A stretch of 64,000 nt of DNA, taken from NCBI RefSeq assembly GCF_055900595.2, contig NZ_CM148325.1, one strand, 5' to 3'. Shown here in pieces: positions 8,939 to 46,655 of the stretch. Each line of letters opens with the position of its first letter. Positions within the stretch are counted from its first letter, which is position 1. The notes beneath the pieces were generated by a model. The model made no database searches. It saw nothing but the letters and a program-made list of their open reading frames with translations, and was not told the DNA's origin. A program made the translations under genes and the position numbers.

Positions 8939-8980
8939 TACCAGAAACCGCCAGCCAGAGGATGATTTCCCTCTGGTGGT

Positions 8981-9262: not shown

Positions 9263-9298
9263 TTCTGCCTCTCAGATTATATAGATAAGCAAAAAGGT

Positions 9299-9419: not shown

Positions 9420-9521
9420 AACACAGCGATAGCTTTGTGATTGGCCCGTTATTTTCTGGCTGATATTTGAGCGTATAACAGTGTTATACAGTGATATACT
9501 GTATGGATATTACTCACTGAT

Positions 9522-9977
9522 ATGGTCTTTGCAATGAGCAAATCTAATCTGGTCGCGTTCCGCATCCCATCTGAATTGCAGGATGAGTTTAATCGGTCTG
9601 TTCTCGCTTCTGGAGGGGATAAAACCTCCTGGCTTGTTGATGCGATTCGCATGAAGCTGGGACAGCCGGAAAAGTCTATTGATTCACGAATGTTTGGGCT
9701 GGTGGAGCGCATGGAAAAAGCTGCTGCGTCGCTTATTGCCGGAAAGCCGAACATCCCACCAAAGCCATATAACGAAACGGCAGTTATAAAGATCATTGCC
9801 GATACCATCCGACAGGGATTTGATAATGGGCGTGTGATAGCTGAACGGATCAATGAAGCAGGCTATCAAACAAAAGCTGGTAAAGCGTGGGATAAAGATA
9901 TTTACAGCGCGTGGAAGCGTCAGGGAAGCAATGCTGAAAAGTTAAAAGCGGTGATTGATTGTAAGGTCAGCGTATAA
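9522..9977 (+). CDS. Putative DNA-binding protein (ribbon-helix-helix-like N-terminus)
   Basis: 151-aa ORF; N-terminal VAFRIPSELQDEFNRS...WLVDAIRMKLG resembles RHH regulators. Confidence 0.5.
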   Translation: MVFAMSKSNLVAFRIPSELQDEFNRSVLASGGDKTSWLVDAIRMKLGQPEKSIDSRMFGLVERMEKAAASLIAGKPNIPPKPYNETAVIKIIADTIRQGFDNGRVIAERINEAGYQTKAGKAWDKDIYSAWKRQGSNAEKLKAVIDCKVSV

Positions 9978-10056
9978 ACATGAGTGCCCATTGGAAAGCT
10001 GCTTGGGCCAATACCTTTATACACCAGCAGGTGGTGACGATAGGTGAGGATCAGGA

Positions 10057-10278
10057 ATGAAAGGCAGAACGCCACACATTGAACATCAAGCCAACCACTT
10101 CTCGGATGTTCGCAATGAGATGATTGCCATTCGCGGTGATATGCACGGCTTGGAGCGTCGAATTATTGATAAGATTGATGAAAATAGAGATAAGGCCAGT
10201 GAAAATCAAAAGTGGATCATCGGCCTGTTGATTTTATCAATTCTTATCCCGCTACTTATCGCATTGGTCACAAAATGA
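10057..10278 (+). CDS. Small membrane protein, XhlA-like (C-terminal transmembrane helix)
   Basis: 73-aa ORF with charged N-terminal region and C-terminal WIIGLLILSILIPLLIALV helix. Confidence 0.4.
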   Translation: MKGRTPHIEHQANHFSDVRNEMIAIRGDMHGLERRIIDKIDENRDKASENQKWIIGLLILSILIPLLIALVTK

Positions 10279-10304
10279 ATATCCAATGTGTATGCTGTCG
10301 ATGC

Positions 10305-10329
10305 TACGCGCGCGTACTTGTCGCAAAAT
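10305..10329 (+). repeat. CG-palindrome motif copy 2: TACGCGCGCGTA + CTTGTCGCAAAAT
   Basis: Direct repeat of motif at 8912 and 10591. Confidence 0.6.
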
Positions 10330-10590
10330 ATCAGGCAAAGGCCAGATTCAGAACGTCGTGATAACCACCAGCACAACATGAGATGTCATGTAACGCGATT
10401 TATCACGTCAGATACATGTGATTGGTGTACCCGCATAAAACATTGTCATAGCGCGTCCTGTGCGCATATACGCCGATAATCAACACATCACCACCACTCT
10501 GTCTCATGTAGAGAACACTTTTATGGTATCCCCCGCCATCGTGTGCGTACTGGTCGGACGCAGTTGCAAAAAATTTTGCAACTGATACCC

Positions 10591-10615
10591 CTCGCGCGCG
10601 TACTTGTCTCGAAAT
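10591..10615 (+). repeat. CG-palindrome motif copy 3: CTCGCGCGCGTA + CTTGTCTCGAAAT, preceded by perfect hairpin 10561-10583
   Basis: Direct repeat; adjacent 11-bp-stem hairpin CAGTTGCAAAA/TTTTGCAACTG. Confidence 0.6.
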
Positions 10616-10822
10616 TGGTGTTTTGCTGTGGCAGTGATATCAGAAAAATCTTCCTGTTTCACATAAAGCGGATATGCGCGTACTGTAACGGCCCCATCAA
10701 CTGGGAGCGGATTTGAGCCCCGAATGTGTAGGCAATGTCACTTAACGTTTGTCGCATACCTTCCAGAAAAAGCGATTCATGAATAATAGGGGCATGAATG
10801 CCCGGCGTACCGGGCTTATTAG

Positions 10823-11521
10823 TTAATTTGGTGCTTTAGGGTCAACATTAAAAGTTATATCACCTTCTGTATTTTTCCCGGCATAGCTAGCGGCTATTCT
10901 CGCCAACCCTTTGTAATCAGCAATTCCATCAGACTGTTGCGAGACGACTGAGCTACCAACTTTCCATAACATATTAATCTGCCGATTATTGAGATAAGCC
11001 TTGGCATCAAACGACTGGAGTATCACCCCTGCGCCGTAGAACGTGTCCGTCACAGTTGTGTTATACGCGCCAGTAATTCCATAAGTAGGCGTATAAACTG
11101 TTGTTGCCGTTCCAGTGGTATTAGCTGTACCGTAGCCACCACCATAACTATTGAACGTGGTGTTCGAGTTTCCGTACGTTGTTGCTGAGCTCACACCAGT
11201 TTGCCCGTATATTGGGATGGTTACATTACGAGTATTTGAAATGGCCCCGCTTCTCAAAAAGTTCAAGAGAATTACCTGGTCAGCCAATTTTTCATCTTTA
11301 ACTTGTGTATATCCTTGGCTTGATAAACTGGCGGCTACTACCGTAGCTATTTGAGTGTATTCAATCTGTTTGGTGTTCCAAAGTTCTTGGCTTGCGGGGA
11401 TGATCAAGAACTTCTTACCGACAGATTGCCCGGAAGATAAAGCATTGACCGTTACTAACGGTTTTTGTACGCATCCAGCCAATAATGACAGGGATAATAT
11501 TAAAAGAAGATTTTTAATCAT
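10823..11521 (-). CDS. Lipoprotein (signal peptide with lipobox LLAGC)
   Basis: MIKNLLLILSLSLLAGCVQ... lipobox; Gly/Thr/Tyr-rich mature region. Confidence 0.7.
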   Translation of the reverse strand: MIKNLLLILSLSLLAGCVQKPLVTVNALSSGQSVGKKFLIIPASQELWNTKQIEYTQIATVVAASLSSQGYTQVKDEKLADQVILLNFLRSGAISNTRNVTIPIYGQTGVSSATTYGNSNTTFNSYGGGYGTANTTGTATTVYTPTYGITGAYNTTVTDTFYGAGVILQSFDAKAYLNNRQINMLWKVGSSVVSQQSDGIADYKGLARIAASYAGKNTEGDITFNVDPKAPN

Positions 11522-11671
11522 GATAATCTCACCTAAGAATTGCGTGGTTATAAATTATCATCACTGTAAGCGAATGTAAGCCACAGACTCGTAATGTGAT
11601 ATGGAATTTTGATAGTTGGCTCAATATCAGTATGCCGTCCTTGGCTATTATGGTTTTGTTAGTTAGAGCGT

Positions 11672-14398: not shown

Positions 14399-15708
14399 CC
14401 CTTAAGTTTTGCCTGATAGTAACTTTCCGGCAGATAGCCATGTGCGGTCACATAATCCTTAACCAGTGAAGGATCCTGCAACAGCATTTTGGTATCAGTT
14501 TCTTCGTCCTTAGATTTGGTTACAGGAATACCGAGCCCGGCAATCTGTCGTTTCTGCATTCGAATAATTACGTCCTGCGCTTTATTCAACTCTCGCAAAA
14601 ATGCCTCATTGCTGGTTGCTGACTTAATGCCATTTTGAGATTGCATAAGGGCAGCCCTTTCCCCTTCGGTTGGGTTAGAGCCAAAAGTCCCTTTGAGGCT
14701 AGGCAGAATAACCTTTAGGTTGTATTCATCAGCTTTGGCGCGTAGGCTTCGTGTGTCTTCTGCTACATCAGGAAGGAATCCAAACCCCAGCGTCAGGGGG
14801 TTATAGTTCTGCGAGCGGGTAACGGCCGAAGGATGTTTCCCTACAATTCCCGCCAGTTCATGACCCACTTCAAGCGCAGAGTTCAAGGAGTCGATGTTAC
14901 CTGCAACAGTATTAATTTTATCGTTCATCTTCTCCACTTTCGCCTGCTGTATCTTGCTCAGTTCAGCATTGAGCTTGTCTCTCTCGATGTCATTTTGAGC
15001 ACGTCCAAGTCGTGCTTTCAGAACCATTTCTCTCGTGCGTAGTTGGTTATCGGATAGGACTTTGAACTGCTCCATATCGAGACGTCGATTACCCTGTTCC
15101 GCATTAACCTGAGCATTATATGCGGATGTATCTGCGTTCTGCTGTGCAATGCTCTGCCCTTGCTGCTTCTCTTGAACACTAAAGTAACTATTTGGATCAG
15201 CATGGAGGTGGATGAGGTCAGTGATTCTGTTGAATTCCTGTGGGTCATTCTGCCAAGACTGATAAACCTCTTCAGCAGGAAGACCAAATCGCTGTAATAC
15301 TGGATTTGCCTGCTGAATGGCCTTCTGCATGGTCAGTGGATCTCCAGTTTGTGACGCAAGACGCAGATTCATGGCAGCGTCAGCGGTCTGTCGATTTTGC
15401 TCAGCATCAATGAATCCCATCTGTTTTTGAGAATCAGCCATAAACTGGGGATACTGGGCCATTAACTTCTGCACGCCAACACGATCATTATTAGCTACCG
15501 CACTACCCAACCGTGCCTGATATTCTTTTAACTGCTGGGAAATTTGCGCCTGCTGATTAATCTCAGCAACGCCTCTTAGCCCCTGTAGCGCCATTAAACC
15601 TACGTTTGGCTGCTGCTGATACTGCACAGGCTGAGGAACGGAAGAACGAGGAGCATTATCATTTTGCGGTGCCATGCTAGGCAGCCCGCCAAGTTGCCAT
15701 GTCGCCAT
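14389..15708 (-). CDS. Phage internal virion/ejection protein (Gln-rich, coiled-coil)
   Basis: 439-aa ORF with start/stop overlap to neighbours in the same operon. Confidence 0.6.
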   Translation of the reverse strand: MATWQLGGLPSMAPQNDNAPRSSVPQPVQYQQQPNVGLMALQGLRGVAEINQQAQISQQLKEYQARLGSAVANNDRVGVQKLMAQYPQFMADSQKQMGFIDAEQNRQTADAAMNLRLASQTGDPLTMQKAIQQANPVLQRFGLPAEEVYQSWQNDPQEFNRITDLIHLHADPNSYFSVQEKQQGQSIAQQNADTSAYNAQVNAEQGNRRLDMEQFKVLSDNQLRTREMVLKARLGRAQNDIERDKLNAELSKIQQAKVEKMNDKINTVAGNIDSLNSALEVGHELAGIVGKHPSAVTRSQNYNPLTLGFGFLPDVAEDTRSLRAKADEYNLKVILPSLKGTFGSNPTEGERAALMQSQNGIKSATSNEAFLRELNKAQDVIIRMQKRQIAGLGIPVTKSKDEETDTKMLLQDPSLVKDYVTAHGYLPESYYQAKLKGWQ

Positions 15709-16385
15709 TAGAATCCAAGCCCCCCAACAAGACCAATAAGCCCACCACCAATAGCGCCGGCCGCAGTTCCTATTCCAGGAACAACGGAACCAAGTTGCGC
15801 ACCCGCTAAAGCGCCTGATGCTGCCCCACCAATACCACGCGCAAGACTGGATGGCTGCTGCGCCTGACCTGCACGAATAGCGCCAAGCCCCTGCAAGAGT
15901 TGTCCGGTATTATTGGCGTAGTTTTGCCCTGCCGTTGCCTGCCCTGATGCCGCATTCATCCCGACATTTAGCAGGTTTCCATAATTTTGCATTTGCCCAC
16001 TGAGCCAATTGTTATAAAGCATGGGCGCAATGGAAGATAACTGGTTACTGGTAGCTGTTGAGCCAAGCCCCCCGGTAGCTTCTGCTGAGACAAGGTTCTG
16101 ATAACGGGCCTGATCTGCCTGTGTTTTATATAAACCAGAACCAAAGAAATCATTCGCGGCTTTATTCTGCCCTTCCAGAGTCATCAGTCCTTGTAGTTGT
16201 TGTAAAGCAGGCAATCCGACTTCTGCATACGGCTTGAGATTATTCATCACCGTATTCCACTGCTCGCGCTGCAAATCAATTGCCTGCTGCTGGGCCTTCG
16301 CCTGAGCTTTAGAGGCACCACCATCACCGCCTTTTTCGTATACGGCACGATTGAGATGTTTATGAGCTATGTGGGTAATTAACAT
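15708..16385 (-). CDS. Phage internal virion/ejection protein with Gly-rich hydrophobic C-terminus
   Basis: 225-aa ORF, overlaps neighbours by 1 and 7 nt. Confidence 0.6.
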   Translation of the reverse strand: MLITHIAHKHLNRAVYEKGGDGGASKAQAKAQQQAIDLQREQWNTVMNNLKPYAEVGLPALQQLQGLMTLEGQNKAANDFFGSGLYKTQADQARYQNLVSAEATGGLGSTATSNQLSSIAPMLYNNWLSGQMQNYGNLLNVGMNAASGQATAGQNYANNTGQLLQGLGAIRAGQAQQPSSLARGIGGAASGALAGAQLGSVVPGIGTAAGAIGGGLIGLVGGLGF

Positions 16386-16840
16386 TCGCTGAATTCCTTA
16401 TATTGTTGCCGAGTTAACTGATAAAGCGTTACGCCGACGGGTTTACCACATCTGATATAAGCATCATCAAGGTGACCAACACGGGTAGCGCCAAGCAAAC
16501 GGATAATTGCCCGTCCGTATTTGGTGGTGTCAGGAACCATGGTAATGCTGTTAAGGAATGGTGAGTTTTCGAGAAGCCATTTGCAGAATAATCGATGCCC
16601 TTGCAGTGCATATTCACCACGGAATCCGGGGTCGTACACCGCATGGCATTCAACAACGCTATGCCAGAAGTTACGCACTTCATGAACGCCAGCCAGCACT
16701 AATCCTTCGTAGATGCCGAGATATACCGCATCAGGCTTGATGTAGTACGTGTGCCCCGGCTCAACAATATTTTCGGTATTGCCTGGCTCGTTAAGAAAGG
16801 CCTGTAATCGCACAGGGTTATCAATAAATTTTAGTTCCAT
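16379..16840 (-). CDS. Hypothetical phage protein, first gene of ejection-protein operon
   Basis: 153-aa ORF. Confidence 0.55.
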   Translation of the reverse strand: MELKFIDNPVRLQAFLNEPGNTENIVEPGHTYYIKPDAVYLGIYEGLVLAGVHEVRNFWHSVVECHAVYDPGFRGEYALQGHRLFCKWLLENSPFLNSITMVPDTTKYGRAIIRLLGATRVGHLDDAYIRCGKPVGVTLYQLTRQQYKEFSEC

Positions 16841-16856
16841 GCGATGCCATCCATTT

Positions 16857-17018
16857 TCACATACAGCCTGCCAGCGCCTTATCTATTAACCCTCGTGCAA
16901 TTTCATGCAGAGTTGGCGCTACTCCAATTCCTGATTTTTTACGCTGCTCTTCCTGAATTTTCTTTATCGCTTCCATTTGCTTCTCACTTATCAATACCGG
17001 CTTTACTGAAATAGCCAT
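16857..17018 (-). CDS. Small hypothetical protein (53 aa)
   Basis: Hand-translated ORF below the track length cutoff, AT-rich promoter upstream. Confidence 0.3.
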   Translation of the reverse strand: MAISVKPVLISEKQMEAIKKIQEEQRKKSGIGVAPTLHEIARGLIDKALAGCM

Positions 17019-17466
17019 AACGCCCCCTTAGAACTGTATAAAACAACAGTTATTATAGTTTCACAAATCGCAATATTCATCATCGTAATTGCAAAATATG
17101 AAACAAATAGCACAAAAAAATGCCACCGCTCAGTAGCTGGTGGCATCGTTCTGTGTGTCAGGTTTTGACAGGTTTTTTATGGACTCTAAAAACTATATTT
17201 ATGGTGTCGCATTACTCTTCACGGCAGGCGCTTTTCAGTTCTGCCCTTGCTTCTGGCTCCATTGGTAATTTGATTCGCGATCAGCTATGCGGATGGTTTG
17301 CTGAACAGGCATAACAACTTCTCAGAGGCTGTTTTTTGAACTACGAAAATTTCGTAGTGCTCACTTTCAAAAACGTCACGCCCTTGTACACAGGATTTTA
17401 CGAAAGTCTCGTAAAACACTCTCTGATGCCAGCCAGGTGTTGTGCGCATCAATTCAGTCACATTGT

Positions 17467-17577
17467 GTTGGTTCAAAATACCGTGTTGTTGGTTCAGTGT
17501 TGGTTCAATAAAAAGAATAAAATCCTTATAAAACAATACTCTTTACAAATTGAACCAACTGAACCAACTGAACCAAC
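17467..17577. repeat. Iteron cluster B: 3 spaced GTTGGTTCA then 3 tandem TGAACCAAC; inverted image of cluster A
   Basis: Reverse complement shares a 45-nt near-identical block with 9295-9340; lies just downstream of the primase gene. Confidence 0.8.
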
Positions 17578-17602
17578 ACCTTTTCTACGCACATGAAGAA
17601 GC

Positions 17603-20362
17603 TCATTCTTCAGATGAGTTATAATCTCCTGGCTGGTAATTGAGTACATAAACGTTTATTTGTCGTCCCTGAATACGTGGTGATTTTCTTTGGTATCCAC
17701 GACCGCTGTTTGGTGGGGTTAGCATCCCGGCTTTTTTCAACACTTCAGCAAACTGTTTTGCGTTGAAACCACATGCGATCTCCTTTTCAAATGTGGCCGG
17801 GAATGTGTAGAAAATCATTGGGCTTTCGTCATGTTCTCCACGCTGACGGTATCCGGCTAAATCTTTGATGGGCAAATCTGCCGGGCTGTATGGAAATGGT
17901 GCAAAACGGCTAAGCCCATAGGCATTAAGAAATGCCTCCGTTTGTTCAATAATCTGCTGATGTTCTTTGTTACCTGTGCCGAACTCGCGCAACCATGCGT
18001 TATAGCTGTGCTGTATCGCATCACGGCATGTCTGAGCATCCCAGCCTGTTACAACCTCGCCTAACAGCAATGCGGCCTCCAGAATGGCAAATCGCGCGGC
18101 TACACGGTGAACCTGCTCACCATAATCGGATGGGATCAGGCTTCTCCATCTGCTTTCGCAATCACGAACGGTTTTAATAGCCTGTTGCTGGTGGTCTGCC
18201 AGCCATTTAATCCACTCACGCCCGGACGCGCCGTGGTGATGCTGGTAAGCGTCTTTCAGTGCGTCTGCGTGCTGTTTTCCGTTCTGGTAATCGTGAAAGC
18301 GTACTGCTTTACTCAACGGAATATTCAGCAGTCGCACCAGTTGCCCGGCTTTGGTTTTTCGCCCGGAAGTAGCGATAAATGTTTCTAAATCCATTTCTCC
18401 GGTGCTGATTGCCACTGTACGCCAACGTTTTAGATCCCGGTTTCCACCATCTTTAGCGCCTTGCAGTTTCCCTACACCGTTAAATAACGCATAGGCAGAC
18501 TGTGAAACGCTGACAGGATCAGCGCCCTGACCAACTTCATCAAGCGGCATTAGTCCGTCATTGTGGGCGGCGGCCTCATTTGCCAGCCCCAGCGCGGTTC
18601 CGTACCACGTCAGCCGCAGTAAATCAGGGTTGCCGTATAAGCTGCTCGCCACGTTTGCCGTGGTGGTCTTACCTGCGCTCGACTGCTCATAGAAATGAAT
18701 GCCGAACCCGTCAGCGCCCACCAGCCCAATCAATGGCGCTGCCAGTGCTGCGCCGATCCCGGTCATCATTGAATAGTTACCAAAGGCCAGACGCGCCACG
18801 TTATCACGCCAGCTTTTCGCGCTCCCTGAGACGGTATATCCGGCTGCGGCTGAGCTTCTCCCGCTGAACAGCACAGGATTTTCAGGTGTTCCGATGATTT
18901 CCCCATCAGGCATGATGTACGCTCCGCATTGCCAGCCAGTGGCATGAGCAACACGCCACAATTCACGAGAGCCACTGCGTTGTAGCCAGTCTGCCAGTAT
19001 TGCTCTGAGGCTGCTTTTGGTCGTGACATTTACCCCACCAGCTTTAAGTGTGCGCCATCCTTCACGTTCACCAATATCAGCCAGTGGAATGGCAGCGGTT
19101 GTCGGCGTTTCAGAACCAAACGACAGCCAGCGAAGAATGAGATACTGGTCTTTATCGTCTCTGCCAGTACCGATAACGCTTAACGGAGAACATAACCAGC
19201 TTTCGTTATTGATGATTTCTCCACTCTGGCTGTCAGCTCTCGGAGATACCCAATAAATACCATCCTCGCGGCTTTCTATTCTTGGTTTCAGTGGGTCGGT
19301 ATCCATAACCTTAAAATCGCTTCCCTCAATGGTCTGTGGCTCCTGTTTCACGCCATTACCCTGTGGTTGGTACATTGACTTATTGAACGCTTCTGTGGCG
19401 CATTTAATGCCGTGTTTTTGGTGGTAATCATTCCAGTCTGCTTTGTGATCTGTCGGGGGTAATGCCACCCATCCAGAAACAGATAAAGCTGCTTTTTCTG
19501 CTGCTATTCTCCCCGTGTTTTGTCTTCCTTCGCTGTGGTCGTTATCCGCAGCAATGATGATTTGTGCTGAAGGATATTTATCCCGCAGTACCTGGGCGAC
19601 ATATAACAGGTTCCCGGCATCAATCGCCGCCACTGTCAGCGCCTCTGGACGAATTAAATGGGCAGATAATGCCGTTGCCAGCCCTTCTGCGATTAAGATG
19701 CTCTGTGTTGTTTCTGGTGCGTTTATGGCGTGATATGCCCCCCGCTTTGCTGAACCTGTCAGGAGTCTTTTTTCACCATGTGAGGTAATAGTCTGTGCTG
19801 CTGTGACTGCGCCGGATTTATCCACCAGCGCCAGCAACAGAGATCCATCGGGCAACACGGGGAATGTAAAATCACCTACCCCTTTCGCAACCAGATAATC
19901 AGATTTGCCGTTTACAGCCTTTCTGCGCATGTCATCAAACTGACGGGAAAACGTATCCCGTCTTTGTTGTTCGTCCTTCTCTGCCCTTTTCAGGCGCTCC
20001 TGTTCGCGTCGCTGGCGCTCGGTTTCCAGTTGTTCCCGTTTCTGGCTGGTGGCTTCTGGTGTTTCCGTTGTCCGGTAATCAATACCCAGAACATCAGCGG
20101 CAAGAAGCGCCGCCTCTGTTGTGTCGCAGTTATTTACGCGTTTAATTAAATCCAGCCCATCACCAGCGCCGCACTGATTACAGATGAAGCTACCGCGCCC
20201 GTTGTCATCGAACCGGAATCGATCTTTGCCCCCACATGCAGGGCAGGGAGCATGACGGCGCGGAGAGTCAGGGACATTTATGTTCAGGCAGCCCAGCACA
20301 TGAGGCCAGTTGTTTTCAGACGCACTGATAACCTGACGGATAAGATCAATGTTTCGCATCAC
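17603..20362 (-). CDS. P4 alpha-like DNA primase-helicase
   Basis: 919 aa; zinc-finger CPACGG...CNQCG, TOPRIM-like acidic core IIIAADNDH, Walker A SSAGKTT. Confidence 0.85.
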   Translation of the reverse strand: MMRNIDLIRQVISASENNWPHVLGCLNINVPDSPRRHAPCPACGGKDRFRFDDNGRGSFICNQCGAGDGLDLIKRVNNCDTTEAALLAADVLGIDYRTTETPEATSQKREQLETERQRREQERLKRAEKDEQQRRDTFSRQFDDMRRKAVNGKSDYLVAKGVGDFTFPVLPDGSLLLALVDKSGAVTAAQTITSHGEKRLLTGSAKRGAYHAINAPETTQSILIAEGLATALSAHLIRPEALTVAAIDAGNLLYVAQVLRDKYPSAQIIIAADNDHSEGRQNTGRIAAEKAALSVSGWVALPPTDHKADWNDYHQKHGIKCATEAFNKSMYQPQGNGVKQEPQTIEGSDFKVMDTDPLKPRIESREDGIYWVSPRADSQSGEIINNESWLCSPLSVIGTGRDDKDQYLILRWLSFGSETPTTAAIPLADIGEREGWRTLKAGGVNVTTKSSLRAILADWLQRSGSRELWRVAHATGWQCGAYIMPDGEIIGTPENPVLFSGRSSAAAGYTVSGSAKSWRDNVARLAFGNYSMMTGIGAALAAPLIGLVGADGFGIHFYEQSSAGKTTTANVASSLYGNPDLLRLTWYGTALGLANEAAAHNDGLMPLDEVGQGADPVSVSQSAYALFNGVGKLQGAKDGGNRDLKRWRTVAISTGEMDLETFIATSGRKTKAGQLVRLLNIPLSKAVRFHDYQNGKQHADALKDAYQHHHGASGREWIKWLADHQQQAIKTVRDCESRWRSLIPSDYGEQVHRVAARFAILEAALLLGEVVTGWDAQTCRDAIQHSYNAWLREFGTGNKEHQQIIEQTEAFLNAYGLSRFAPFPYSPADLPIKDLAGYRQRGEHDESPMIFYTFPATFEKEIACGFNAKQFAEVLKKAGMLTPPNSGRGYQRKSPRIQGRQINVYVLNYQPGDYNSSEE

Positions 20363-20717
20363 CGTACCCCACGTGGTCTATAGCGTTTGCGATATGGCTA
20401 ACCAGCATCTGCCACTTGGTTATTCCGTAATCAGTCAGCATGCCATCATTGTTTAGCCACATATCAAATTCAGCGGTTGTCGCAAGTTTCCACTTATCGC
20501 CGTGGGCAGTCCTCATTGCTGGGTACATGAATGCGCAAATCAGATCACAAACATCTGACGGCTTCAGAGATGTAGTAATGATGCGTCCCTCTGGCGTCTG
20601 AATTGCCATTTTCTCTTCACCAGTAGAATGAAGGTTATGAATCCACACAGCACCAGCAATCTTTGCCACCTGCTCTCCGATTGCGGAGCTAAGCGCCATT
20701 TCTGCATTTTCACGCAT
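20346..20717 (-). CDS. Hypothetical protein
   Basis: 123-aa ORF in operon with primase. Confidence 0.45.
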   Translation of the reverse strand: MRENAEMALSSAIGEQVAKIAGAVWIHNLHSTGEEKMAIQTPEGRIITTSLKPSDVCDLICAFMYPAMRTAHGDKWKLATTAEFDMWLNNDGMLTDYGITKWQMLVSHIANAIDHVGYGDAKH

Positions 20718-21051
20718 GAGAACCTCCCGCTACAGTTGCGCCCATGTCATTAACCATGCTTTGCCATATCTCACGCCCGACGTCAGTCAATCCGTCCTTA
20801 GTGACGCAACGATCAAGAAGCTCGATCCCCACGGTTTCCCACTGCGGGTAGAACACTTTCATGGCTGCCAGTGTGTAGCTATCGATCAGGCTGCGAACGC
20901 CTTTTACTCCATTGACGATTTCCACACGGACGGCCTCGCCGTCCGCATCAACCATGAAATAGTCCCCGCCGCTGGTGGAGGTAATGTGGTTATACAGTGC
21001 CGACGCATACTTATTTGCCAGCGCATTCAGTCGGAAATTTTTAGTAATCAT
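20710..21051 (-). CDS. Hypothetical protein
   Basis: 113-aa ORF, 8-nt overlap with downstream gene. Confidence 0.45.
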   Translation of the reverse strand: MITKNFRLNALANKYASALYNHITSTSGGDYFMVDADGEAVRVEIVNGVKGVRSLIDSYTLAAMKVFYPQWETVGIELLDRCVTKDGLTDVGREIWQSMVNDMGATVAGGSHA

Positions 21052-21061
21052 GGTTCCATCC

Positions 21062-21664
21062 TCAGTGCGTCACTGGTTCCGCTGGCATGCCGTTTTCATT
21101 CAGTTCAGCTATAAAGCTGTTGTGAAGTTCAGCAAGCGTTTCACGACCAAATGGAGTCAGTGCTCCTTGTTCCACATCCATCATGGCTCTGTAGAAAATG
21201 ATGGCGCGTTCTGTGCCAGACTCGATGCCAAAACGTTCTATCATCGCGCCCTCAATGTTGTTTGCCATAGCGAGGCGCTCTGCTACTGGATACAGCGGCA
21301 TGGCGACGATGCCGTTGGAATAAACAGCCACTTCGGAAGGGTTGCCAGTATCATCAATGATGCTGACAGTGCCGTTTTCCTCTCTCATTTCCAGCATGAA
21401 TACTGTTGCGATCAGCCATCTCCACATAATGACGTTATGCTGTGATGTGTAATCGAAATATCCCTGGTTGCCGCCATCGGCTATAGCGAGATGTATTGAC
21501 ATACCTTCATCTGGTTTATCGTCATAATCCCCGGCATCCAGACGATTTACGGCATCAATATATGAGACGGCCTCAACGCGTTCTGTCATGCCATCGTTGC
21601 TGCGGTACATGATGTTTACGCCGTCAGGCGTTGCTTCTGCATGGAAAGTTAAGAAATTATTCAT
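21062..21664 (-). CDS. Hypothetical protein
   Basis: Start moved to internal ATG (MNNFLTF...) giving ATG/TGA overlap with upstream ORF. Confidence 0.5.
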   Translation of the reverse strand: MNNFLTFHAEATPDGVNIMYRSNDGMTERVEAVSYIDAVNRLDAGDYDDKPDEGMSIHLAIADGGNQGYFDYTSQHNVIMWRWLIATVFMLEMREENGTVSIIDDTGNPSEVAVYSNGIVAMPLYPVAERLAMANNIEGAMIERFGIESGTERAIIFYRAMMDVEQGALTPFGRETLAELHNSFIAELNENGMPAEPVTH

Positions 21665-21878
21665 GTTTCGCCTCGCCTGAATGATTCTGTAACTCATATT
21701 TGCCCAACAATTCGTCTGCTTCCTGAATAGCTTCTGGTACGCCATTGAGCAGTGACATAACCGCGCCAATCATTAACTTGTCTCTGTTGCTGGGGCTGGC
21801 CCCTTCAAGCCAGAACCCTAAAACAGTCTGAACCTGTTCGATGCGACATTGTGCTTCAATGAGCTGGATGTTGGTCAT
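21657..21878 (-). CDS. Hypothetical protein
   Basis: 73-aa ORF, overlapping start/stop chain. Confidence 0.4.
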   Translation of the reverse strand: MTNIQLIEAQCRIEQVQTVLGFWLEGASPSNRDKLMIGAVMSLLNGVPEAIQEADELLGKYELQNHSGEAKHE

Positions 21879-22138
21879 TTCGCACTCTCCGCATCGATTA
21901 AACTGATATCTATCAGAGAGGTAACTTTTTGTAGCCAGCTAGTGATTACTGTCGCCTGTTCCCCTCCCACCGATGGAAGAATCTCATTCATCACATGAAG
22001 CAGACCTGTGCGCGCCCTGGTAAGCCGTTCAGTCGTGCGATCTGCAAGAGTGAATGTGTCTGGATATGGCTCTTCACGGCTCAGCAATGATTCAATTTCC
22101 AGCTCACACGGATGACGATAAATTAAGTTGATATTCAT
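21875..22138 (-). CDS. Hypothetical protein
   Basis: 87-aa ORF, overlapping start/stop chain. Confidence 0.4.
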   Translation of the reverse strand: MNINLIYRHPCELEIESLLSREEPYPDTFTLADRTTERLTRARTGLLHVMNEILPSVGGEQATVITSWLQKVTSLIDISLIDAESAK

Positions 22139-22386
22139 TTTTCACCACCAAGAATTACCAGCTCTGCACGAGCATCGTTAACCAAAGATGAGCACGCTTT
22201 AATCGCATCCACGACATCAGCAGCGTCCATTTCTTCAGCCGAAAGACTGACAGCAACCAGGACAGCCGCTGCTTGCTCGATTAATTGAAGTGCGGACGTA
22301 AGTCGAGGGGCATTAATTGAGTTATTCATTGGTTGCCCCCGTTTTTCCTGGCATTTCGCCACCTTCCAGCAGGAAATGAACGTCAC
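22135..22386 (-). CDS. Hypothetical protein
   Basis: 83-aa ORF; true start may be internal. Confidence 0.35.
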   Translation of the reverse strand: MTFISCWKVAKCQEKRGQPMNNSINAPRLTSALQLIEQAAAVLVAVSLSAEEMDAADVVDAIKACSSLVNDARAELVILGGEK

Positions 22387-22540
22387 GAACGGCGAGATCC
22401 AATATCGCGAGTAACGCCTTCAGTCTTTCGTCTCGTGAGGGAGAGTTGCTCACCAGAATGTCGTTAATCACTTCTGTCAGTGTGATGATCTGGCTTGTGC
22501 GTTCGAGGGGATCCATATGCACATCGTAGGTTTTAATCAT
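22322..22540 (-). CDS. Hypothetical small protein
   Basis: C-terminal 72 aa of the long 355-aa track ORF; GGAGGTG RBS before ATG at 22540. Confidence 0.35.
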   Translation of the reverse strand: MIKTYDVHMDPLERTSQIITLTEVINDILVSNSPSRDERLKALLAILDLAVRDVHFLLEGGEMPGKTGATNE

Positions 22541-22874
22541 GTGCCACCTCCATGCGGATACGACCAGCAAAAAAGCAGACGTGATCGCGCACCAGAGAAC
22601 GGCGAGCATCGCGTTCAGACTCGGCAGCAATATGATGAATTTTGGCGGTAATTGTCGGGCAATCGCGGCGAACTGCGGCGATAATCCAGATAAATTGCGG
22701 TTTTTGGGTAGGGGTAGTAGCCAGCATGTGGCAGCCTCCTTGTACTGGGAATTCTTCCCACCACCGGAGCTGCGAAACTCGCTGGTGGTGGACTGAACAG
22801 AGTTCGCAGTACCGGCGTACAAGGAAACCGGCCAGCCTTTCGGCTGCCCTGTCCAGCCCACCATAATTTTGCAA
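22533..22874 (-). CDS. Hypothetical protein
   Basis: 113-aa ORF with ATG/TGA overlap at 22533-22540. Confidence 0.35.
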   Translation of the reverse strand: MQNYGGLDRAAERLAGFLVRRYCELCSVHHQRVSQLRWWEEFPVQGGCHMLATTPTQKPQFIWIIAAVRRDCPTITAKIHHIAAESERDARRSLVRDHVCFFAGRIRMEVAHD

Positions 22875-23385
22875 GCGACGCGGATTATAACCACATCACT
22901 GAAAAAAGTGTGAGTCTGGCTAACGGCACAAAAAAAGACGCTCGGCGCGTCATGTGTCGCCTCGTACATTTCCGGGCTGCGAAACCCGGCACCCGTTTTA
23001 TGAGGTGCCTTATAACCATAAACCGTGTTGCCGCATAACGGCAAGCTCTTTTTTATGGACTCCGAAAACTCACTATTGGAAGAACCAGAAGCACAGTACA
23101 TCGCGCTCATTTCGTTAACGTCACGCGCGTGGACGAATGTTTTTGTGGAGTCACTACACGAGCGGAAGACATCATCTACGACCAGAAATTTTCTGGCGCA
23201 GCCGCTGACCTTCTCAAGGCTAATATCATCGCCCGAGATTTCTGGTATGGTTAAGGCATCCGTTCCGGCCACCAGCAAATGATAAACTTTGCTTGTATCT
23301 GCTGTATTAATGCCTGACTTTGCCGTCATATTTCTGGATTTTGGCGACATACCAGCCAGTGAAAATGTCTTCTTCTGGATGGGTA

Positions 23386-23565
23386 TCATTGGTTAACCTC
23401 CGCGAACTCCTTCATGAAACGCGCCAGCGGTTGTACGCATGGCGATTGATACCCGTCGCGATAAAACGTCACTCGGTTGTGAGACACGCTTTCGACAGTA
23501 ACGAGTGCTCCGTGGGCATCTTTGTAGCGTTTTTGAGGTTGTGGTGTTCCTGTCGGCTTAAACAT
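23386..23565 (-). CDS. Small hypothetical protein
   Basis: 59-aa ORF from internal ATG overlapping antirepressor stop. Confidence 0.35.
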   Translation of the reverse strand: MFKPTGTPQPQKRYKDAHGALVTVESVSHNRVTFYRDGYQSPCVQPLARFMKEFAEVNQ

Positions 23566-24391
23566 GGACCGCCTCCAGACGCTTGGCGAGCCAGCGTTGC
23601 GACAGGCGGGTGAGTTCTCCTTTACGCTGCTCATATTCCATGCCCATATCAATTAACGTGATATTGGTGCTTTCGAGATATGAGAGGTGCTCAAGCTGTT
23701 CTGCGTTCATATGGTCGCGAGGTTCGCCAGAATAGCCATTTATCCGCGCCCACTGTTTAGCAGTTAGCCCACCAAGAACGATACGAGAAATCATATTGCT
23801 CTCGTTTGTGTAGTGGTGTTGCTGCGTCGTTTTACCCATCTCGGCACGGGCCATATTCAGCGCATCGCACATTGGCTTAAAGTTGTTTGCGGCACTGATA
23901 CGGGCTTTTAGCTGGCGACGATAGCGGGCGGCGATTTCAGGCACGCTACGCTGTAATTCTTCCTCGCACTGGATGAAATAACGGCGGATAGCGCGCCCCT
24001 GATCATTGCGTTCGATCATTGCCAGTTCTTTCGCCATTCCGACACTTAACAGATAGTCTTTGCCGGGTCTGCCAGACTGCTTAATCTTGCTGTAAGCCGC
24101 GTCATTCGGGCTTTTCCCCAAATTTGGGGAAATTGTTTTATGGACTGAGTAATCGTGCCCAATGGTGAAGTCATATTCAGAGATGCGATCAGTGATCCAT
24201 GTAGAGAAGTCTTTTCCCACGCCCAACGCTTTGTGTAACGCTTTTGCGCTAACAATATTGGTTTCACGCCCACCGATATGACCAGGAATAACCGGGACAA
24301 TTGCGGCAAATTCATTACCGTTAATTGTGCCCAGAGAGGCGTTCAGATGAGGGGCAGCCTCAGAAATTAATCTGCTTTTTTCGATGTTCAT
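23558..24391 (-). CDS. Phage antirepressor-like protein
   Basis: 277 aa; KALHKALGVGKDFSTWITDRI...LLSVGMAKELAMIERNDQGRAIRRYFIQCEE resembles AntA/KilAC-type antirepressors. Confidence 0.5.
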   Translation of the reverse strand: MNIEKSRLISEAAPHLNASLGTINGNEFAAIVPVIPGHIGGRETNIVSAKALHKALGVGKDFSTWITDRISEYDFTIGHDYSVHKTISPNLGKSPNDAAYSKIKQSGRPGKDYLLSVGMAKELAMIERNDQGRAIRRYFIQCEEELQRSVPEIAARYRRQLKARISAANNFKPMCDALNMARAEMGKTTQQHHYTNESNMISRIVLGGLTAKQWARINGYSGEPRDHMNAEQLEHLSYLESTNITLIDMGMEYEQRKGELTRLSQRWLAKRLEAVHV

Positions 24392-24403
24392 TTTCAGTCT
24401 CCG

Positions 24404-24835
24404 TTAGGCGGCGTTAAACGCGTCCGGGTAGAGTTTCAGAATGTCGGCAATTTCCTGCTGAGAAAGTCCGTTGTGATCATTTATGTTCGCAAGATGGTTA
24501 ACATGAGTGATCACTTTCAGAACATCACCACGGCAGGAGAAACGGTAGCGAAGGTGTGTTCCGATACCATCAGGATTCTTTTCGTCGATACGCTCCAGAG
24601 TGATTCCAAGCTGGCGTTCTAACTCTGTTGCATAGTTACGACCAGAAGACAGACGGCAGTAGCGAAGAATGTCATTTTCTGTCCATCCCTCTATACCAGT
24701 ACGCAGCATATAGACTCTGGCACGATGCTTTTTCGGTGTGCGCTTTGGTGCTTGAAGGGATTTTGTAAGGGGCGTAACATCAGATACACGAATATCTGAA
24801 TTAGCCGCCTGTAATGGGCGGTTTTTCTTTTCCAT
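24404..24835 (-). CDS. Hypothetical protein
   Basis: 143-aa ORF between antirepressor and alpA. Confidence 0.45.
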   Translation of the reverse strand: MEKKNRPLQAANSDIRVSDVTPLTKSLQAPKRTPKKHRARVYMLRTGIEGWTENDILRYCRLSSGRNYATELERQLGITLERIDEKNPDGIGTHLRYRFSCRGDVLKVITHVNHLANINDHNGLSQQEIADILKLYPDAFNAA

Positions 24836-25038
24836 CAGGCCACCTCGTCTCTAGATTCTAATATACACTTCTCAATCCATTCATCTATTTCAGACTCAAC
24901 AAAAGCAATTGCCCGACTTCCAATTTTTACCTGTTTAGGGAACCTCCCCTGACTAATAAGACGATAAATCCATGCTTTGCTATAACCAGTTCGCCTTTGA
25001 ACTTCAGAGAGACGAATTAATGAATTGTAATTAGCCAT
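24835..25038 (-). CDS. alpA: AlpA-family transcriptional regulator / excisionase-like
   Basis: 67 aa; LIRLSEVQRRTGYSKAWIYRLISQGRFPKQVKIGSRAIAFVESEIDEWI is the AlpA HTH pattern. Confidence 0.8.
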   Translation of the reverse strand: MANYNSLIRLSEVQRRTGYSKAWIYRLISQGRFPKQVKIGSRAIAFVESEIDEWIEKCILESRDEVA

Positions 25039-34814: not shown

Positions 34815-35429
34815 TTATCCTTCGATAAAAGCCATCCCTGTAAACGTCCGTCGCGGGTTGCCACGTTCAATCTGGTGATGGAACATTCGCCGCTGCGATT
34901 TCAGCGCCGCGCTATTTTCCTGTTGCTGTTGCTCCAGCTTCCAGGCAATCAGCAATCGCGCCAGCCGTTTGTTGGCATGTTGGCTGCGCTCTGACTGAAC
35001 CTTCACGCTAATCCCGGATGCCAGATGCGTGGCGCGTACCGCCGAGTCGGTTTTATTGACATGTTGACCGCCCGGCCCCGACGAACGCAGCGTCTCATAA
35101 TGGATCGCATCGGATTGCTCCTGCTCATCTGCAGTAAAACGCCCAATGCCCAGAAACCAGTTTTTGCGCCCATGATGAGGGCGATACGGACTCGGACAAA
35201 TCCACTGGATAGTGCCACACCAGCTTTCGCTTAGTGCCCATGCGTTGTCGCCATCAAGTGAAACCAGCGCCGAACGCAGTGTGTCAGAGTAGCGACCCGT
35301 TTCTGTTTCCAGCACCGTTACCGCGACGTCTTGTCGGGCAGCTTCTTTAATCAGCCTGTCCAGTGCCTTTTTCACTGCGAGACAACATTCTTCCGGCCCC
35401 TGAGCTGAGGAGAGTTGTAGCAAGATCAT
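34815..35429 (-). CDS. prfH: Peptide chain release factor homolog PrfH (apparently intact)
   Basis: GGQ motif [10 protein letters not shown]; start MILLQL... overlaps upstream RtcB stop (ATGA). Confidence 0.85.
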
Positions 35430-36565
35430 CCTTTTTTCCCTCCACTGTTTTTGAGCGTCAGCACCGGACGCAGTCGCGCGACAGGAATAATTAAACCGGC
35501 CTGCACCAGACATTGCACCACACTTTCAGCCGATTTATAGGCTTGTGGCGCTTCTTCAAAGATGAGTTGTTTATCGCGACAAATTACCCGACTGCCAAGT
35601 TCAGTACGTGAGAGTTGCGTCGCCGTGTATTTCGCTGCCAGACGCCCTTTACACTCGGTGCGCCCCCATTTACGCCCTGCCCCATGCGCCAGTGAGTGAA
35701 GCGTTTTTTCGTTCGCAACAGGTTTAACCAGCCAGGAGTAATCACCGCGTGAACCGGGAATAATCACCAGACCGTTGTCATCCGGCGTAGCCCCTTTACG
35801 GTGTAACCATCCTTGTTGATCGCCGATTCGACATGCGCTAACAAAGTTATGCGCCACATCCAGAACCGAATTTCCGTTGGCCTTAACTTGTTGCATTATG
35901 CGCAAAGCGATCAGCTGGCGATTAATACGCGCAAACGCCAGCGCATCATCATGTTCCGCAATATAACTTAGCGCGTCGTCACTGCCTTCCGGCAAACCAT
36001 GATGCGAAAACGAGGCAATATGCCGCTGTAAAATAGACTGCCCTAAACCACGCGAGCCGCTATGGACCAGCAGTTGCAGATGCTGCGCATCCAGACCTGA
36101 CAGTGCAAACAGTTCCGCGTCGATGATTTGATCAATCTGTTGCAGTTCTGCAAAGTGGTTACCGCCACCGATAGAGCCAAGCGCGCAGCGCCACGGATGC
36201 TGTGCAAACGCTGACGGCAGGTTTTCCTCCAGCCAGCTTTCTTCAGCAACGTCATCCAGCGCAGATAATCGCTTTTCAAACTTATCGGCGTTGTATTTAC
36301 GCGCGAGAATATCTGTTTGCCATAGCGCCATACCGCAGCCGATATCATTGCCGACCAGTGCCGGGTAAAAACGGCCTACGGAGAAGAACGCTGCGCCAAT
36401 CGGATAGCCGCGTCCGGGGTGCAAATCTGGCATCCCCACTACGCGCTGCATGTTGGGTAAATTTGCCGTGGTGTGTAATTGTTGGATCGCTGAACTCTCG
36501 ATCCACAGGTCATCAGATGCGATGGTAAATACCGCATCGGATAAGGGACGAATATATTTGCCCAT
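35426..36565 (-). CDS. RtcB-family RNA ligase homolog (prfH partner)
   Basis: 379 aa; position immediately upstream of prfH; RtcB-like GGNHFAE region. Confidence 0.75.
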
Positions 36566-36810: not shown

Positions 36811-37263
36811 TTAATGTTGCGGTTTATATCGCATATGAAAATTAGTAAACCACGCTCCCCGGCATTCAACGCGTTGCTGCTTAACTGTCTGAAAACCATA
36901 ACGTTCAAAAAAGGGTTTTGCGGTTATGCTGGCGTCCACCGTAAGTTCGGATTCAGACTTAATCAAAGGTTTTAACAAAGCGCTGGCAACCCCACGGCGA
37001 GTATATTCAGGGTCAACAAATAACATATCGATATAATGTTCAATGCGGGAAATAAAACCAACCGGTTGTGCATTAATCACAGCAACTCGCACTTGTGATT
37101 TCGCGAGTTGCTCTTTCCAGCGAGATTCGTCAATCTGCGCCCAGGCGGCAATTTGTTGTGGTGAATAATGCTGACTGGCGGTCATCGTAACCGCTCTAAT
37201 GAAAATAGCGCATAGTTGCTGAAAATCGCAAGGCTGATAGTTTCTTATTTGTATGTTATTCAT
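36811..37263 (-). CDS. yafP: GNAT-family acetyltransferase YafP
   Basis: 150 aa, overlaps dinB stop; yafN-yafO not present between dinB and yafP. Confidence 0.85.
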
Positions 37264-38315
37264 AATCCCAGCACCAGTTGTCTTTCCATTTGCGGATCCA
37301 GCAACGTCACATGCAGCCCCACCAGCCGCACACCGCGCCCGCCACGGCGTTCATCCCAGGTTTTACGCGCAGTGGCGATCAAGTCAGCTTTATTCAGCCG
37401 CGGCCAGACGTGTTCCTGGGTGGTTTGCTGAAAATCGTCGAACTTTAATTTCACCCCCTGGCGGGCAATCAGTAAATCAGGTTTTACCTTTGCCAGACGA
37501 CGTTCAAGTTCCGGGTACAACCGCTCGATGATCGCTTCACATTCAGACCAGTGATGAATATCTTCCGCCATGGTGCGTTCTACACCGACGGATTTTCGCA
37601 ACCTTTCGCTGTTAACGTCGCGCTCGTCAATGCCCTGGCTACGCTCCCACAAAATGCGGCCAAATTTGCCAAAGCGTTTAAGCAACGTCACCAGATCACA
37701 CTTTTGTACATCGCCACAGGTTCGTAGCCCCATCGCTTCCAGTTTTGCCGCCGAGACTTTGCCGACACCGGGAATTTTTGCCAGCGGTAAGGTTTGCAGA
37801 AATGCCGGAACTTCTGCCGGCGTAATCACAAACTGACCGTTGGGTTTATTCATGTCTGAGGCGATTTTGGCGAGAAACTTGACCGGCGCAACGCCCGCAG
37901 ACGCCGTCAGTTGCAGCTCGTTGAAGATCGTCTGGCGGATTTCCTGAGCGATAAGGGTCGCAGAGCCGTGGCAATGGACACTATCGGTGACGTCGAGATA
38001 GGCTTCATCCAGTGACAGCGGCTCAATACGCGATGTGTAGCGAGAGAAGATTTCGCGGATATGATTTGACGCTTCTTTGTAGGCGTCAAAGCGCCCTGGA
38101 AGCAAGGTGAGATGCGGACACAGTTTGAGCGCCATGCCGGTTGGCATTGCGCTACGCACGCCAAATTTACGCGCGGGATAATTGGCGGTGCTGATCACCC
38201 CCCGGCGTTCGCGGCTGCCGCCAATAGCAATAGGGATATCGCGCAGGGCGGGATTGTCGCGCATCTCCACCGCGGCGAAAAAGCAGTCCATATCCACATG
38301 AATGATTTTACGCAT
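37260..38315 (-). CDS. dinB: DNA polymerase IV
   Basis: 351 aa [33 protein letters not shown]... Confidence 0.95.
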
Positions 38316-41000: not shown

Positions 41001-42981
<1,981 letters not shown>

Positions 42982-43106
42982 AAATCGCGGAAGGGATGAA
43001 ACAACAGCGCCTGACGGCGCTGTGTCTGGCATGCCTGCAATCCGGGAGACTGGACCAGGAAAAAACTTGCAGGCCGTAACAGTATCTACTGTTAAAGCAC
43101 AGATTT

Positions 43107-43247
<141 letters not shown>

Positions 43248-43250
<3 letters not shown>

Positions 43251-43745
43251 TAAAATGATACGCTCTCCGGCACTAAAATCCGTTACGTCCCCCGCCCAAT
43301 CGATGGGATATAACCCTTTCGCGACATCACGATGGAACGTTGAGAATGGCCAATCACTTACCTGCTTTACCCAGCCATGTTTTACTGGATTTATATAAAT
43401 ATAATCAACATGATGGCGATAATCTTTGGTGTTGCGGATGGCATGCTCCCAAAAACGCGGTTGCCAGATATTTTTCAATCCGCAAACATGGGTGAATTGC
43501 TTTTTAATCTCCCGCCAGCGCGAGGAAAAATCATCATCGCTTTCGGGTAATGTCCAGATACAGTGCATATGCTCCGGCAAAACGACCCAGGCGTTAATTT
43601 CAAAAGGCCTGTCTCGCTTAACGTTAATAATGGCGTTACGGAGCATCTGTAACTGAGCGGTCAAAAGTTGGCTTCGACGATTCCGTAAATTTACCGTGAA
43701 AAACCATGTTCCCCCCTTTATATAAAAACGACGATATTCAGACAT
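43248..43745 (-). CDS. rayT: REP-associated tyrosine transposase
   Basis: 165 aa MSEYRRFYIKGGTWFFTVNLRNRRSQLL...; flanked by REP clusters. Confidence 0.9.
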
Positions 43746-43834: not shown

Positions 43835-43926
43835 CAGACTCGTAGGCATGATAAGACGCGCCAGCGTCGCATCAGGCATCGGCGCATAACCGCCGGATGC
43901 GGCGTACACGCCTTATCCGCCCTACA
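43835..43926. repeat. REP cluster flanking rayT
   Basis: GTAGGCATGATAAGACGCGCCAGCGTCGCATCAGGC and CCGGATGCGGCGTACACGCCTTATCC units. Confidence 0.8.
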
Positions 43927-44680
43927 AAATCGTCTCTTCTGTCAAAATCCTGCGCGCGCCCAAAAAGTGATCCTGCCAGAAAGGTTCAGCTAACCGACTT
44001 ACCCGAATGGTTTCCCCGGTGCGCGGCGACTCGATAAACTGACCGTCTCCCAGATACACGCCCATATGGTCGGCAATCTCGCGGCTGTGAATATGGAAAA
44101 ACAGCAAATCTCCCCGGCGCAGGTCGTTATTTGCCACAATGGTTGCCCGACGGTAGTGATACATCTCATTGGCCGTGCGCGGGAGTTTCGCCTCGAGGAT
44201 CTTGTTGTAGGCATAAAAAACCAACCCGCTACAGTCGAAGCCTTGATCGGGTCGCGTGCCACCCCAGACGTATGGCTTGCCAAGCTGCTGCTCCAGACGG
44301 TGAATCGCCACTTCGGTGATATTATGCAGGTGGTTACTGCTGAGGAAATGATTGTTTTCCGCCAGCGCCTGCCAGCGTCTGTCACTCGCCTTGAGCGGCG
44401 CAGGAAACCATTCTGGATGCTGTTTTATCTGTTCGCGGTTGTGTTGCCGCAGTGCCCTTCTGCTTTCAGCATTGCCTTCCACAATATAGCTGGCCTGCTT
44501 TTTCAGATGAATTTGGTACTGTTTTAATAAACGCGCACGGTTTTGCATCCGCTGGCGGGCGGCGTAGCTGAAAGAGATATGTGATGTGGTGGCGCTGGCG
44601 AGTAAAGGGAGCAAAACGCATAACGAAAACACGCCTGGATGCAGAAATCTGCCGAGCAAGAACGAAGACATGAAGGACAT
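43922..44680 (-). CDS. yafL: NlpC/P60-family peptidase YafL
   Basis: Signal peptide plus Cys-containing DCSGLVFYAYNKIL motif. Confidence 0.85.
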   Translation of the reverse strand: MSFMSSFLLGRFLHPGVFSLCVLLPLLASATTSHISFSYAARQRMQNRARLLKQYQIHLKKQASYIVEGNAESRRALRQHNREQIKQHPEWFPAPLKASDRRWQALAENNHFLSSNHLHNITEVAIHRLEQQLGKPYVWGGTRPDQGFDCSGLVFYAYNKILEAKLPRTANEMYHYRRATIVANNDLRRGDLLFFHIHSREIADHMGVYLGDGQFIESPRTGETIRVSRLAEPFWQDHFLGARRILTEETIL

Positions 44681-44971
44681 AAACCGGCTGAATGAAGGTG
44701 AGAATTTTAAAAGACCGGAGGAGTAAACGGGATTATTAATTGCTTATTTGCATATTACTATTGAGGTTTCATAATCTTAGGAAATAAATGATACATGCGC
44801 TTTTCGGACTAATGAAAACTGCCCTTGTGCTAAATTTGTAAACCCTGCGCCGACAGGCTTGCGTAAAACTCTTTTGGTGATAATGTGAGCCTTCCAAATC
44901 CAGACTATTCCGATTTGGGATCCATTTTGCCGTCCTGGCGTGTGTAACCGTTTTATCAAGGAATAAGCAGT

Positions 44972-45712
44972 ATGCGTAAAATCGCATTAATTCTTGCGAT
45001 GTTGTTGATCCCGTGCGTTTCGTTTGCCGGTTTGCTGGGCAGCAGTAGCTCGACCACGCCAGTGAGCAAAGAGTATAAGCAGCAGTTGATGGGATCCCCT
45101 GTCTACATCCAGATCTTCAAGGAAGAACGTACGCTCGATCTCTACGTCAAAATGGGCGAGCAATATCAACTGCTCGACAGCTATAAAATCTGTAAATATT
45201 CCGGCGGCTTAGGGCCAAAACAGCGTCAGGGCGATTTCAAAAGCCCGGAAGGGTTTTATAGCGTCCAGCGTAATCAGTTAAAACCAGACAGCCGTTACTA
45301 CAAAGCGATTAATATTGGATTCCCCAATGCCTATGACCGTGCGCATGGTTATGAAGGGAAATACCTGATGATCCACGGCGATTGTGTTTCCATCGGCTGC
45401 TACGCGATGACCAATCAAGGTATTGATGAGATCTTCCAGTTCGTTACCGGCGCGCTGGTGTTTGGTCAGCCGAGTGTGCAGGTAAGTATTTATCCGTTCC
45501 GCATGACCGACGCCAACATGCAGCGCCATAAATATTCCAACTTTAAGGACTTCTGGGAGCAACTGAAGCCGGGCTACGACTACTTTGAACAGACCCGTAA
45601 GCCACCGACCGTTTCTGTGGTCAATGGCCGTTACGTCGTCAGCAAACCGTTGAGCCATGAAGTGGTGCAGCCACAGCTGGCATCAAACTACACGCTCCCC
45701 GAGGCAAAATAA
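44972..45712 (+). CDS. yafK: L,D-transpeptidase-family protein YafK
   Basis: 246 aa [20 protein letters not shown]...; [14 protein letters not shown] catalytic region. Confidence 0.9.
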
Positions 45713-46510: not shown

Positions 46511-46655
46511 CAGGTCGGATGCGGCGTGAACGCATTATTCGGCCTACGGTTCGGGTACAGATTTGTAGGCATGATAAGACGCATCAGCGTCGCATCAGGC
46601 ATCAGCGCACAAGTGCCGGATGCGGCGTAAACGCCTTATCCAGCCTACGCCAGAC
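46511..46655. repeat. REP cluster
   Basis: GGATGCGGCGTGAACGC and GCCGGATGCGGCGTAAACGCCTTATCC units. Confidence 0.8.

Follow-up and report, generated by a model that had tools for sequence, protein, structure and literature searches.

In E. coli K-12 MG1655, the genes dpaA (b0224) and yafL (b0227) are separated by 906 bp and enclose yafQ (b0225) and dinJ (b0226), a type II toxin-antitoxin (TA) pair of the YafQ (RelE-like) and RelB/DinJ families. An initial annotation of the DNA studied here, made from its letters alone, had correctly placed the pair at this position in K-12 and had proposed that it is absent between the same two genes in the present strain. The question raised by this locus is whether dinJ-yafQ is indeed missing from it, and whether the pair was lost from the site or never acquired there. 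We have analyzed a 64-kb stretch of E. coli chromosome, hereafter called the window, whose orientation is opposite to that of K-12.

The yafL-dpaA locus and the search for dinJ-yafQ

The gene order in the window is rayT, yafL, dpaA and then yafJ, gmhA and fadE. The same genes surround dinJ-yafQ in K-12, with rayT and yafL on one side and dpaA, yafJ, gmhA and fadE on the other. The names rayT, yafL and dpaA follow the annotation of the near-identical record NZ_CP098223.1, in which PGAP places the yafL start nine bases later (44671), giving a gap of 300 bp. Both genes bordering the gap are full length and contain the expected domains (ORF list and Pfam, Table 1). DpaA, a peptidoglycan meso-diaminopimelic acid protein amidase, releases Lpp from the cell wall polymer. 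In tblastn comparisons, the identity between the window and K-12 DpaA was 100% after rounding, with at least one substitution (Q184K), and K-12 RayT matched the window with 95% identity over 164 aa.

REP/BIME clusters flank rayT (43094-43283 and 43835-43932), and another lies between yafJ and gmhA (46516-46655); all REP clusters are outside the yafL-dpaA gap, where none was found. An IS3-family element with two ORFs and a programmed frameshift (41328-42505) is inserted in an IS110-family remnant (41102-42981), this block being placed between an flhA-like pseudogene and rayT.

Table 1. Features of the yafL-dpaA locus, in window coordinates
Feature	Position	Strand	Description
rayT (yafM)	43248..43745	-	REP-associated tyrosine transposase; left neighbor of yafL, as in K-12
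yafL	43922..44680	-	NlpC/P60 (C40) peptidase, 252 aa; ORF list; Pfam NLPC_P60, E 2.4e-33
First 27 yafL codons (signal peptide)	44600..44680	-	Empty-form type MSFMSSFLLGRFLHPGVFSLCVLLPLLA vs. K-12 MSLPSIPSFVLSGLLLICLPFSSFA
Segment specific to the empty form	44600..44831		232 bp vs. 838 bp in K-12; junction mapping
yafL-dpaA intergenic region	44681..44971		291 bp, between divergent genes; very probably the unoccupied ancestral site
AT-rich block, nearly invariant across Escherichia	44730..44790		53/72 alignment columns invariant (74%)
Region adjoining dpaA	44832..44971	+	140 bp in both forms; 126/140 columns invariant across Escherichia (90%)
dpaA (yafK/ldtF)	44972..45712	+	YkuD-family, 246 aa; ORF list; Pfam YkuD, E 2.8e-8

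We have searched all 64 kb with K-12 DinJ and YafQ by tblastn, using a word size of 2 and accepting E values up to 100. The best matches of DinJ (RelB/DinJ-family antitoxin, ~86 aa) and of YafQ (YafQ/RelE-family toxin, ~92 aa) had E values of 0.11 and 0.29, respectively, and both fell outside the gap. Between 44681 and 44971, DinJ had no match at all and the sole tblastn match was one of 12 residues obtained with the YafQ query (E 29). A Pfam scan at E up to 10 yielded nothing meaningful for the five ORFs of at least 20 aa that touch the gap, the lone hit being at chance level (11 residues, E 0.15, 12 bits where the cut-off is 30). The initial annotation had described yafL and yafK (dpaA) as divergent, 291 bp apart and without any DinJ- or YafQ-like ORF between them. 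The ORF list agrees with this spacing and orientation, tblastn and the Pfam scan agree on the lack of such ORFs, and the sensitive homolog search that had been named beforehand as able to overturn the claim detected nothing in the interval.

The motif CTG-N10-CAG is absent from positions 44400-45100, and no LexA box was found, the best 20-mer scoring 11/20 against the consensus, vs. 15/20 for the box of the K-12 dinJ promoter. Antitoxin, toxin and LexA-box promoter, the three constituents of the module, are thus all missing. Compared with the K-12 locus, the window is devoid of dinJ, yafQ, the LexA-box promoter and the K-12-type yafL signal peptide. We refer below to the arrangement without the TA pair as the empty form.

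The gap contains two conserved blocks. In the stretches adjoining the AT-rich block, only 24-43% of the alignment columns were invariant. A promoter scan predicted within this block a plus-strand sigma-70-like site (TTTGCA-17-CATAAT, 44747-44775), and the block has a recognizable counterpart in Citrobacter. Next to it (~44790), the window lacks an 11-bp AAATAA-type repeat unit that is present in the other empty-type forms compared, except BS-01. The block could serve yafL, dpaA or both. The second block, which adjoins dpaA, is conserved into Citrobacter and Phytobacter, and the dinJ-yafQ segment of K-12 ends just upstream of it. Since both forms retain these 140 bp, they probably contain a promoter and leader that belong to dpaA itself. 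The predicted fold of the dpaA leader (44888-44975) was no better than that of shuffled sequence (z -0.21), and we claim no structured element.

It is very unlikely that the gap holds a different small element in place of dinJ-yafQ, for instance a small RNA, small protein or type I toxin. In favor of such an element, conservation across Escherichia is higher in the ~60-bp AT-rich block than in the yafL coding sequence beside it, and the plus-strand promoter-like site of the block lies ~200 bp upstream of dpaA. However, an Rfam search of positions 44300-45200 at E up to 10 returned nothing better than E 0.3, with chance-level miRNA and snoRNA matches only. The gap ORFs had no meaningful family match, as described above, those on the minus strand overlap the dpaA start, and the dpaA leader folds like shuffled sequence. 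Moreover, a counterpart of the AT-rich block precedes yafL in Citrobacter and in K-12, which fits a common regulatory region for yafL or dpaA. The gap has no TA gene, remnant or SOS box and very probably consists only of the upstream regions of two peptidoglycan-enzyme genes, in which the conserved blocks would act as promoters.

Extent of the replacement and the two states of the site

In the alignment to K-12, homology breaks at 44599/44600, in codon 27 of yafL, and resumes at 44832, 140 bp before the dpaA start. Between these junctions, the 232 bp of the window are replaced by 838 bp in K-12, which comprise another yafL 5' end, a 209-bp dinJ promoter region with the LexA box, dinJ, yafQ and 14 bp. 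The difference between the two forms is therefore a replacement that extends 81 bp into yafL, and not a clean insertion or deletion. Repeats were sought at the junctions as a possible mechanism, and none was found beyond the shared flanks.

The YafL N-terminus of the window type (MSSFLLGRFLHPGVFSLCVLLPLLA) is found also in B2, and O145:H28 and E. albertii have a diverged version of it. Among the N-termini compared, only K-12 and Escherichia sp. MOD1-EC7003 have the K-12 type (MSLPSIPSFVLSGLLLICLPFSSFA). In MOD1-EC7003 (~3094 of its locus), the K-12-type yafL start codon reads isoleucine (RISLPS...); the gene may be impaired, or translated from a different start. Downstream of the exchanged part, the yafL body (43922-44599) was 91.9% identical between the window and K-12 over 678 bp. 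The yafL body is unusually polymorphic within E. coli: the forms of the window, K-12 and B2 were 92-93% identical to one another, and identity to E. albertii was ~88%. The identity of dpaA between the same three forms was 96.5-98%.

The rayT side of yafL varies too. In O145:H28 RM13514, a hicA-hicB TA pair stands in place of rayT (439-1066 of the locus), and in ATCC 25922 rayT is simply missing beside yafL. With this side also variable, the yafL neighborhood appears to be a hotspot for small cassettes.

We have examined the distribution of the two forms in 5,426 complete E. coli genomes, 5,424 of which were matched by a 1-kb query spanning the gap. The query was contiguous in 2,082 genomes; in those of the other genomes that were sampled, annotated dinJ and yafQ interrupted it. 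DNA of dinJ-yafQ was detected in 3,340 of the 5,426 genomes and the window-specific 232 bp in 2,084, all of them without dinJ-yafQ by count. These numbers bear out the variable presence of the module that the initial annotation had anticipated. Because they sum exactly to the 5,424 genomes having the locus (61.6% vs. 38.4%), the site has two states. All the dinJ-yafQ genomes in a sample spread over the set covered an identical 77% of the 1-kb query, from which it follows that their junctions are the same and that this form probably originated once.

The empty state could be subdivided according to identity to the window. Forty-seven genomes were window-like (99% or more), 776 were at 95-99%, 1,231 at 90-95% and 30 at 80-90%. 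The 90-95% group includes the B2 strain ATCC 25922, which has the empty form with 11 extra bases near 44790, and the 80-90% group includes O145:H28 RM13514 and BS-01. The gaps of O145:H28 and Escherichia sp. E1V33 are almost the same in sequence, suggesting import between lineages.

Origin of the two forms

The dpaA neighborhoods of single genomes, one per species and amounting to 80 loci, were searched for YafL, DinJ, YafQ and RayT. In E. albertii, Escherichia sp. E1V33 and SCPM-O-B-8794, yafL lies beside dpaA without the TA pair, and the same was observed in about ten Citrobacter and in Phytobacter massiliensis. The only outgroup genome with the K-12 arrangement was that of MOD1-EC7003. The gap of the window aligns end to end with those of E. 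albertii, E1V33 and SCPM-O-B-8794; it carries neither a cassette scar nor a remnant, and its flanking genes are intact. Since the outgroups are without the pair, the gap is colinear with theirs and its blocks are recognizable in Citrobacter, the absence is best read as "never acquired" and not as "lost", and on this comparative basis the window represents the original, never-occupied form of the site. Hence, the interval is very probably the intact ancestral divergent region between yafL and dpaA of Escherichia, with dinJ-yafQ acquired here later by other E. coli lineages.

The reverse history, in which the ancestors had dinJ-yafQ at this site and deleted it, is highly improbable. It would be comparable to the reduction of the TA repertoire in lineages like B2. 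Gene loss is how PMC10790755 explains the small toxin repertoire of B2 and its relatives, and most sequenced genomes do carry dinJ-yafQ. However, the 232-bp segment is not a deletion scar, since it is homologous to and colinear with the gap of E. albertii, of two further Escherichia lineages and, over part of its length, of Citrobacter. By deletion, neither the ancestral signal peptide of yafL nor the AT-rich block could have been restored, and no TA remnant was found by tblastn or Pfam. Likewise highly improbable is that the strain keeps dinJ-yafQ elsewhere, on the chromosome or a plasmid: 12 of the 3,350 dinJ-yafQ matches in the genome set were indeed on plasmids, but nothing was detected within the 64-kb window, and the exact sum of the two states means that empty-site genomes essentially never have a second-site copy at megablast-detectable DNA identity.

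If the pair was acquired, as we favor, the K-12-type form would have arisen once. The incoming 838 bp, with a diverged yafL 5' end, the dinJ promoter and its LexA box, dinJ and yafQ, would have displaced 232 ancestral bp and left untouched the 140 bp adjoining dpaA. Descent and recombination could then have spread this form to the ~62% of sequenced E. coli that now have it.

As to the source of the segment, the AT-rich block upstream of K-12 yafL matched Citrobacter amalonaticus S646 at 46 of 56 positions (z 12 against shuffles) and showed no significant match to the AT-rich block of the window. Residues of the Citrobacter type (GLL, FS) are retained in the signal peptide of K-12 YafL, and the other Escherichia N-termini in the comparison do not have them. 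Related TA pairs with ~68% DNA identity occur on ~40-kb plasmids of Klebsiella, Citrobacter and Enterobacter; the close matches in the plasmid collection came from large E. coli records on which yafL is present as well, several of them from K-12 laboratory strains. We have also considered, and rejected, a foreign origin of the K-12 yafL body, which is Escherichia-like in a gene that is simply very polymorphic. Only the first ~24-27 yafL codons and the upstream region look imported.

These features point to a donor outside the sampled Escherichia, from which a diverged allele of the yafL-dpaA gap, with dinJ-yafQ already inside, would have been brought in by recombination. The 80 loci examined included no non-Escherichia donor in which the genes run yafL-dinJ-yafQ-dpaA, so it is short similarities that argue for the import of this allele. 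Given how polymorphic yafL is, the diverged 5' end could also be an old within-species polymorphism and not foreign DNA. The rare BS-01 form complicates a simple history of two forms, since it mixes features of both: although it is without the TA pair, its yafL body resembles that of K-12 (97%), and it has a 14-bp motif in common with the K-12 signal-peptide region.

Published distribution, neighboring genes and other features of the window

Fiedoruk et al. 2015 and Ramisetty & Santhosh 2016 are reportedly sources for the phylogroup distribution of dinJ-yafQ, and may cover the junctions too. Both are cited in PMC7167474 and PMC5120126. In the published surveys, as far as their accounts of this pair go, dinJ-yafQ occurs in phylogroups A, B1, E and F, whereas D, G and B2 are without it (PMC6896753; PMC10790755). 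PMC6896753 describes yafQ-dinJ as gained in the E/B1/A lineage and also in phylogroup F; according to PMC10790755, YafQ is prevalent in A, B1 and F. Such a lineage-specific distribution agrees with the 61.6%/38.4% split observed here and with the empty site of ATCC 25922 (B2). The polymorphism is thus real and ordinary, dinJ-yafQ having already been published as an accessory module of E. coli that is missing in several phylogroups. The distribution given in these accounts concerns presence or absence, whereas the junctions, the swapped yafL 5' end and the outgroup colinearity come from the present analysis. The detail added is minor, namely an empty site that is very probably ancestral, the exact boundaries of the replacement and a TA pair that would have arrived together with a different yafL 5' end. 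With an ancestral empty site, "loss in B2", which is how PMC10790755 words it for toxin repertoires, would be the wrong description for dinJ-yafQ.

It is conceivable, if rather doubtful, that a swap of neighboring regulatory and coding sequence, with effects on YafL and DpaA, goes together with whether dinJ-yafQ is present. In this tentative reading, the TA form brings YafL another signal peptide, and the distal block upstream of dpaA, conserved in the genus and containing the predicted site at 44747-44775, would be exchanged for the SOS- and DinJ-controlled dinJ promoter. If this were true, the expression or export of YafL and DpaA, two peptidoglycan-remodeling enzymes, might differ between phylogroups A, B1, E and F on the one hand and D, G and B2 on the other, and the phenotypes of dinJ-yafQ deletions in K-12 could be due in part to altered dpaA expression. 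The latter concern is already raised in PMC5120126. The point is mainly one of caution when reading K-12 dinJ-yafQ deletion phenotypes or comparing strains.

The yafNO genes of the dinB operon are likewise a small TA cassette between conserved genes that is cleanly missing in some lineages. In the window, dinB (37263-38315, minus strand) abuts yafP (36814-37263, minus strand), with yafN-yafO lying in between in K-12; YafN and YafO had no match at E up to 1 anywhere in the 64 kb. Unlike the yafNO example, which was compared by presence or absence, the change at the dinJ-yafQ site rewrites the 5' end of a neighboring gene.

None of the 5,426 complete genomes matched the window from end to end, the best one covering 81% of positions 1-25000. 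The record NZ_CP098223.1 was 100% identical over the 1-kb query and ~99.9% identical where colinear, with large indels relative to the window. An island of ~20.7 kb (~6061-26841) adjoins a tRNA-Thr gene and is missing from the nearest complete genome (Z0117EC0005). It carries phage-like genes (a TOPRIM/DUF927 protein, a DNA ejection protein, ash and antA/antB), and the stretch of it that the 25-kb query included (6061-25000) shows 99.9% identity to sequence in APEC O78:H51 strains. Further differences from the nearest complete genome are found at 1119-1888, where ~770 bp of the window correspond to ~20 kb with abiEi/abiEii, the pao operon and the ecp fimbrial operon, and at 52868, where colinearity ends. 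Finally, prfH and an rtcB-family RNA ligase gene are intact at 34815-36565, according to annotation transferred from the near-identical record, while at this place K-12 has only the pseudogenes ykfJ and prfH.
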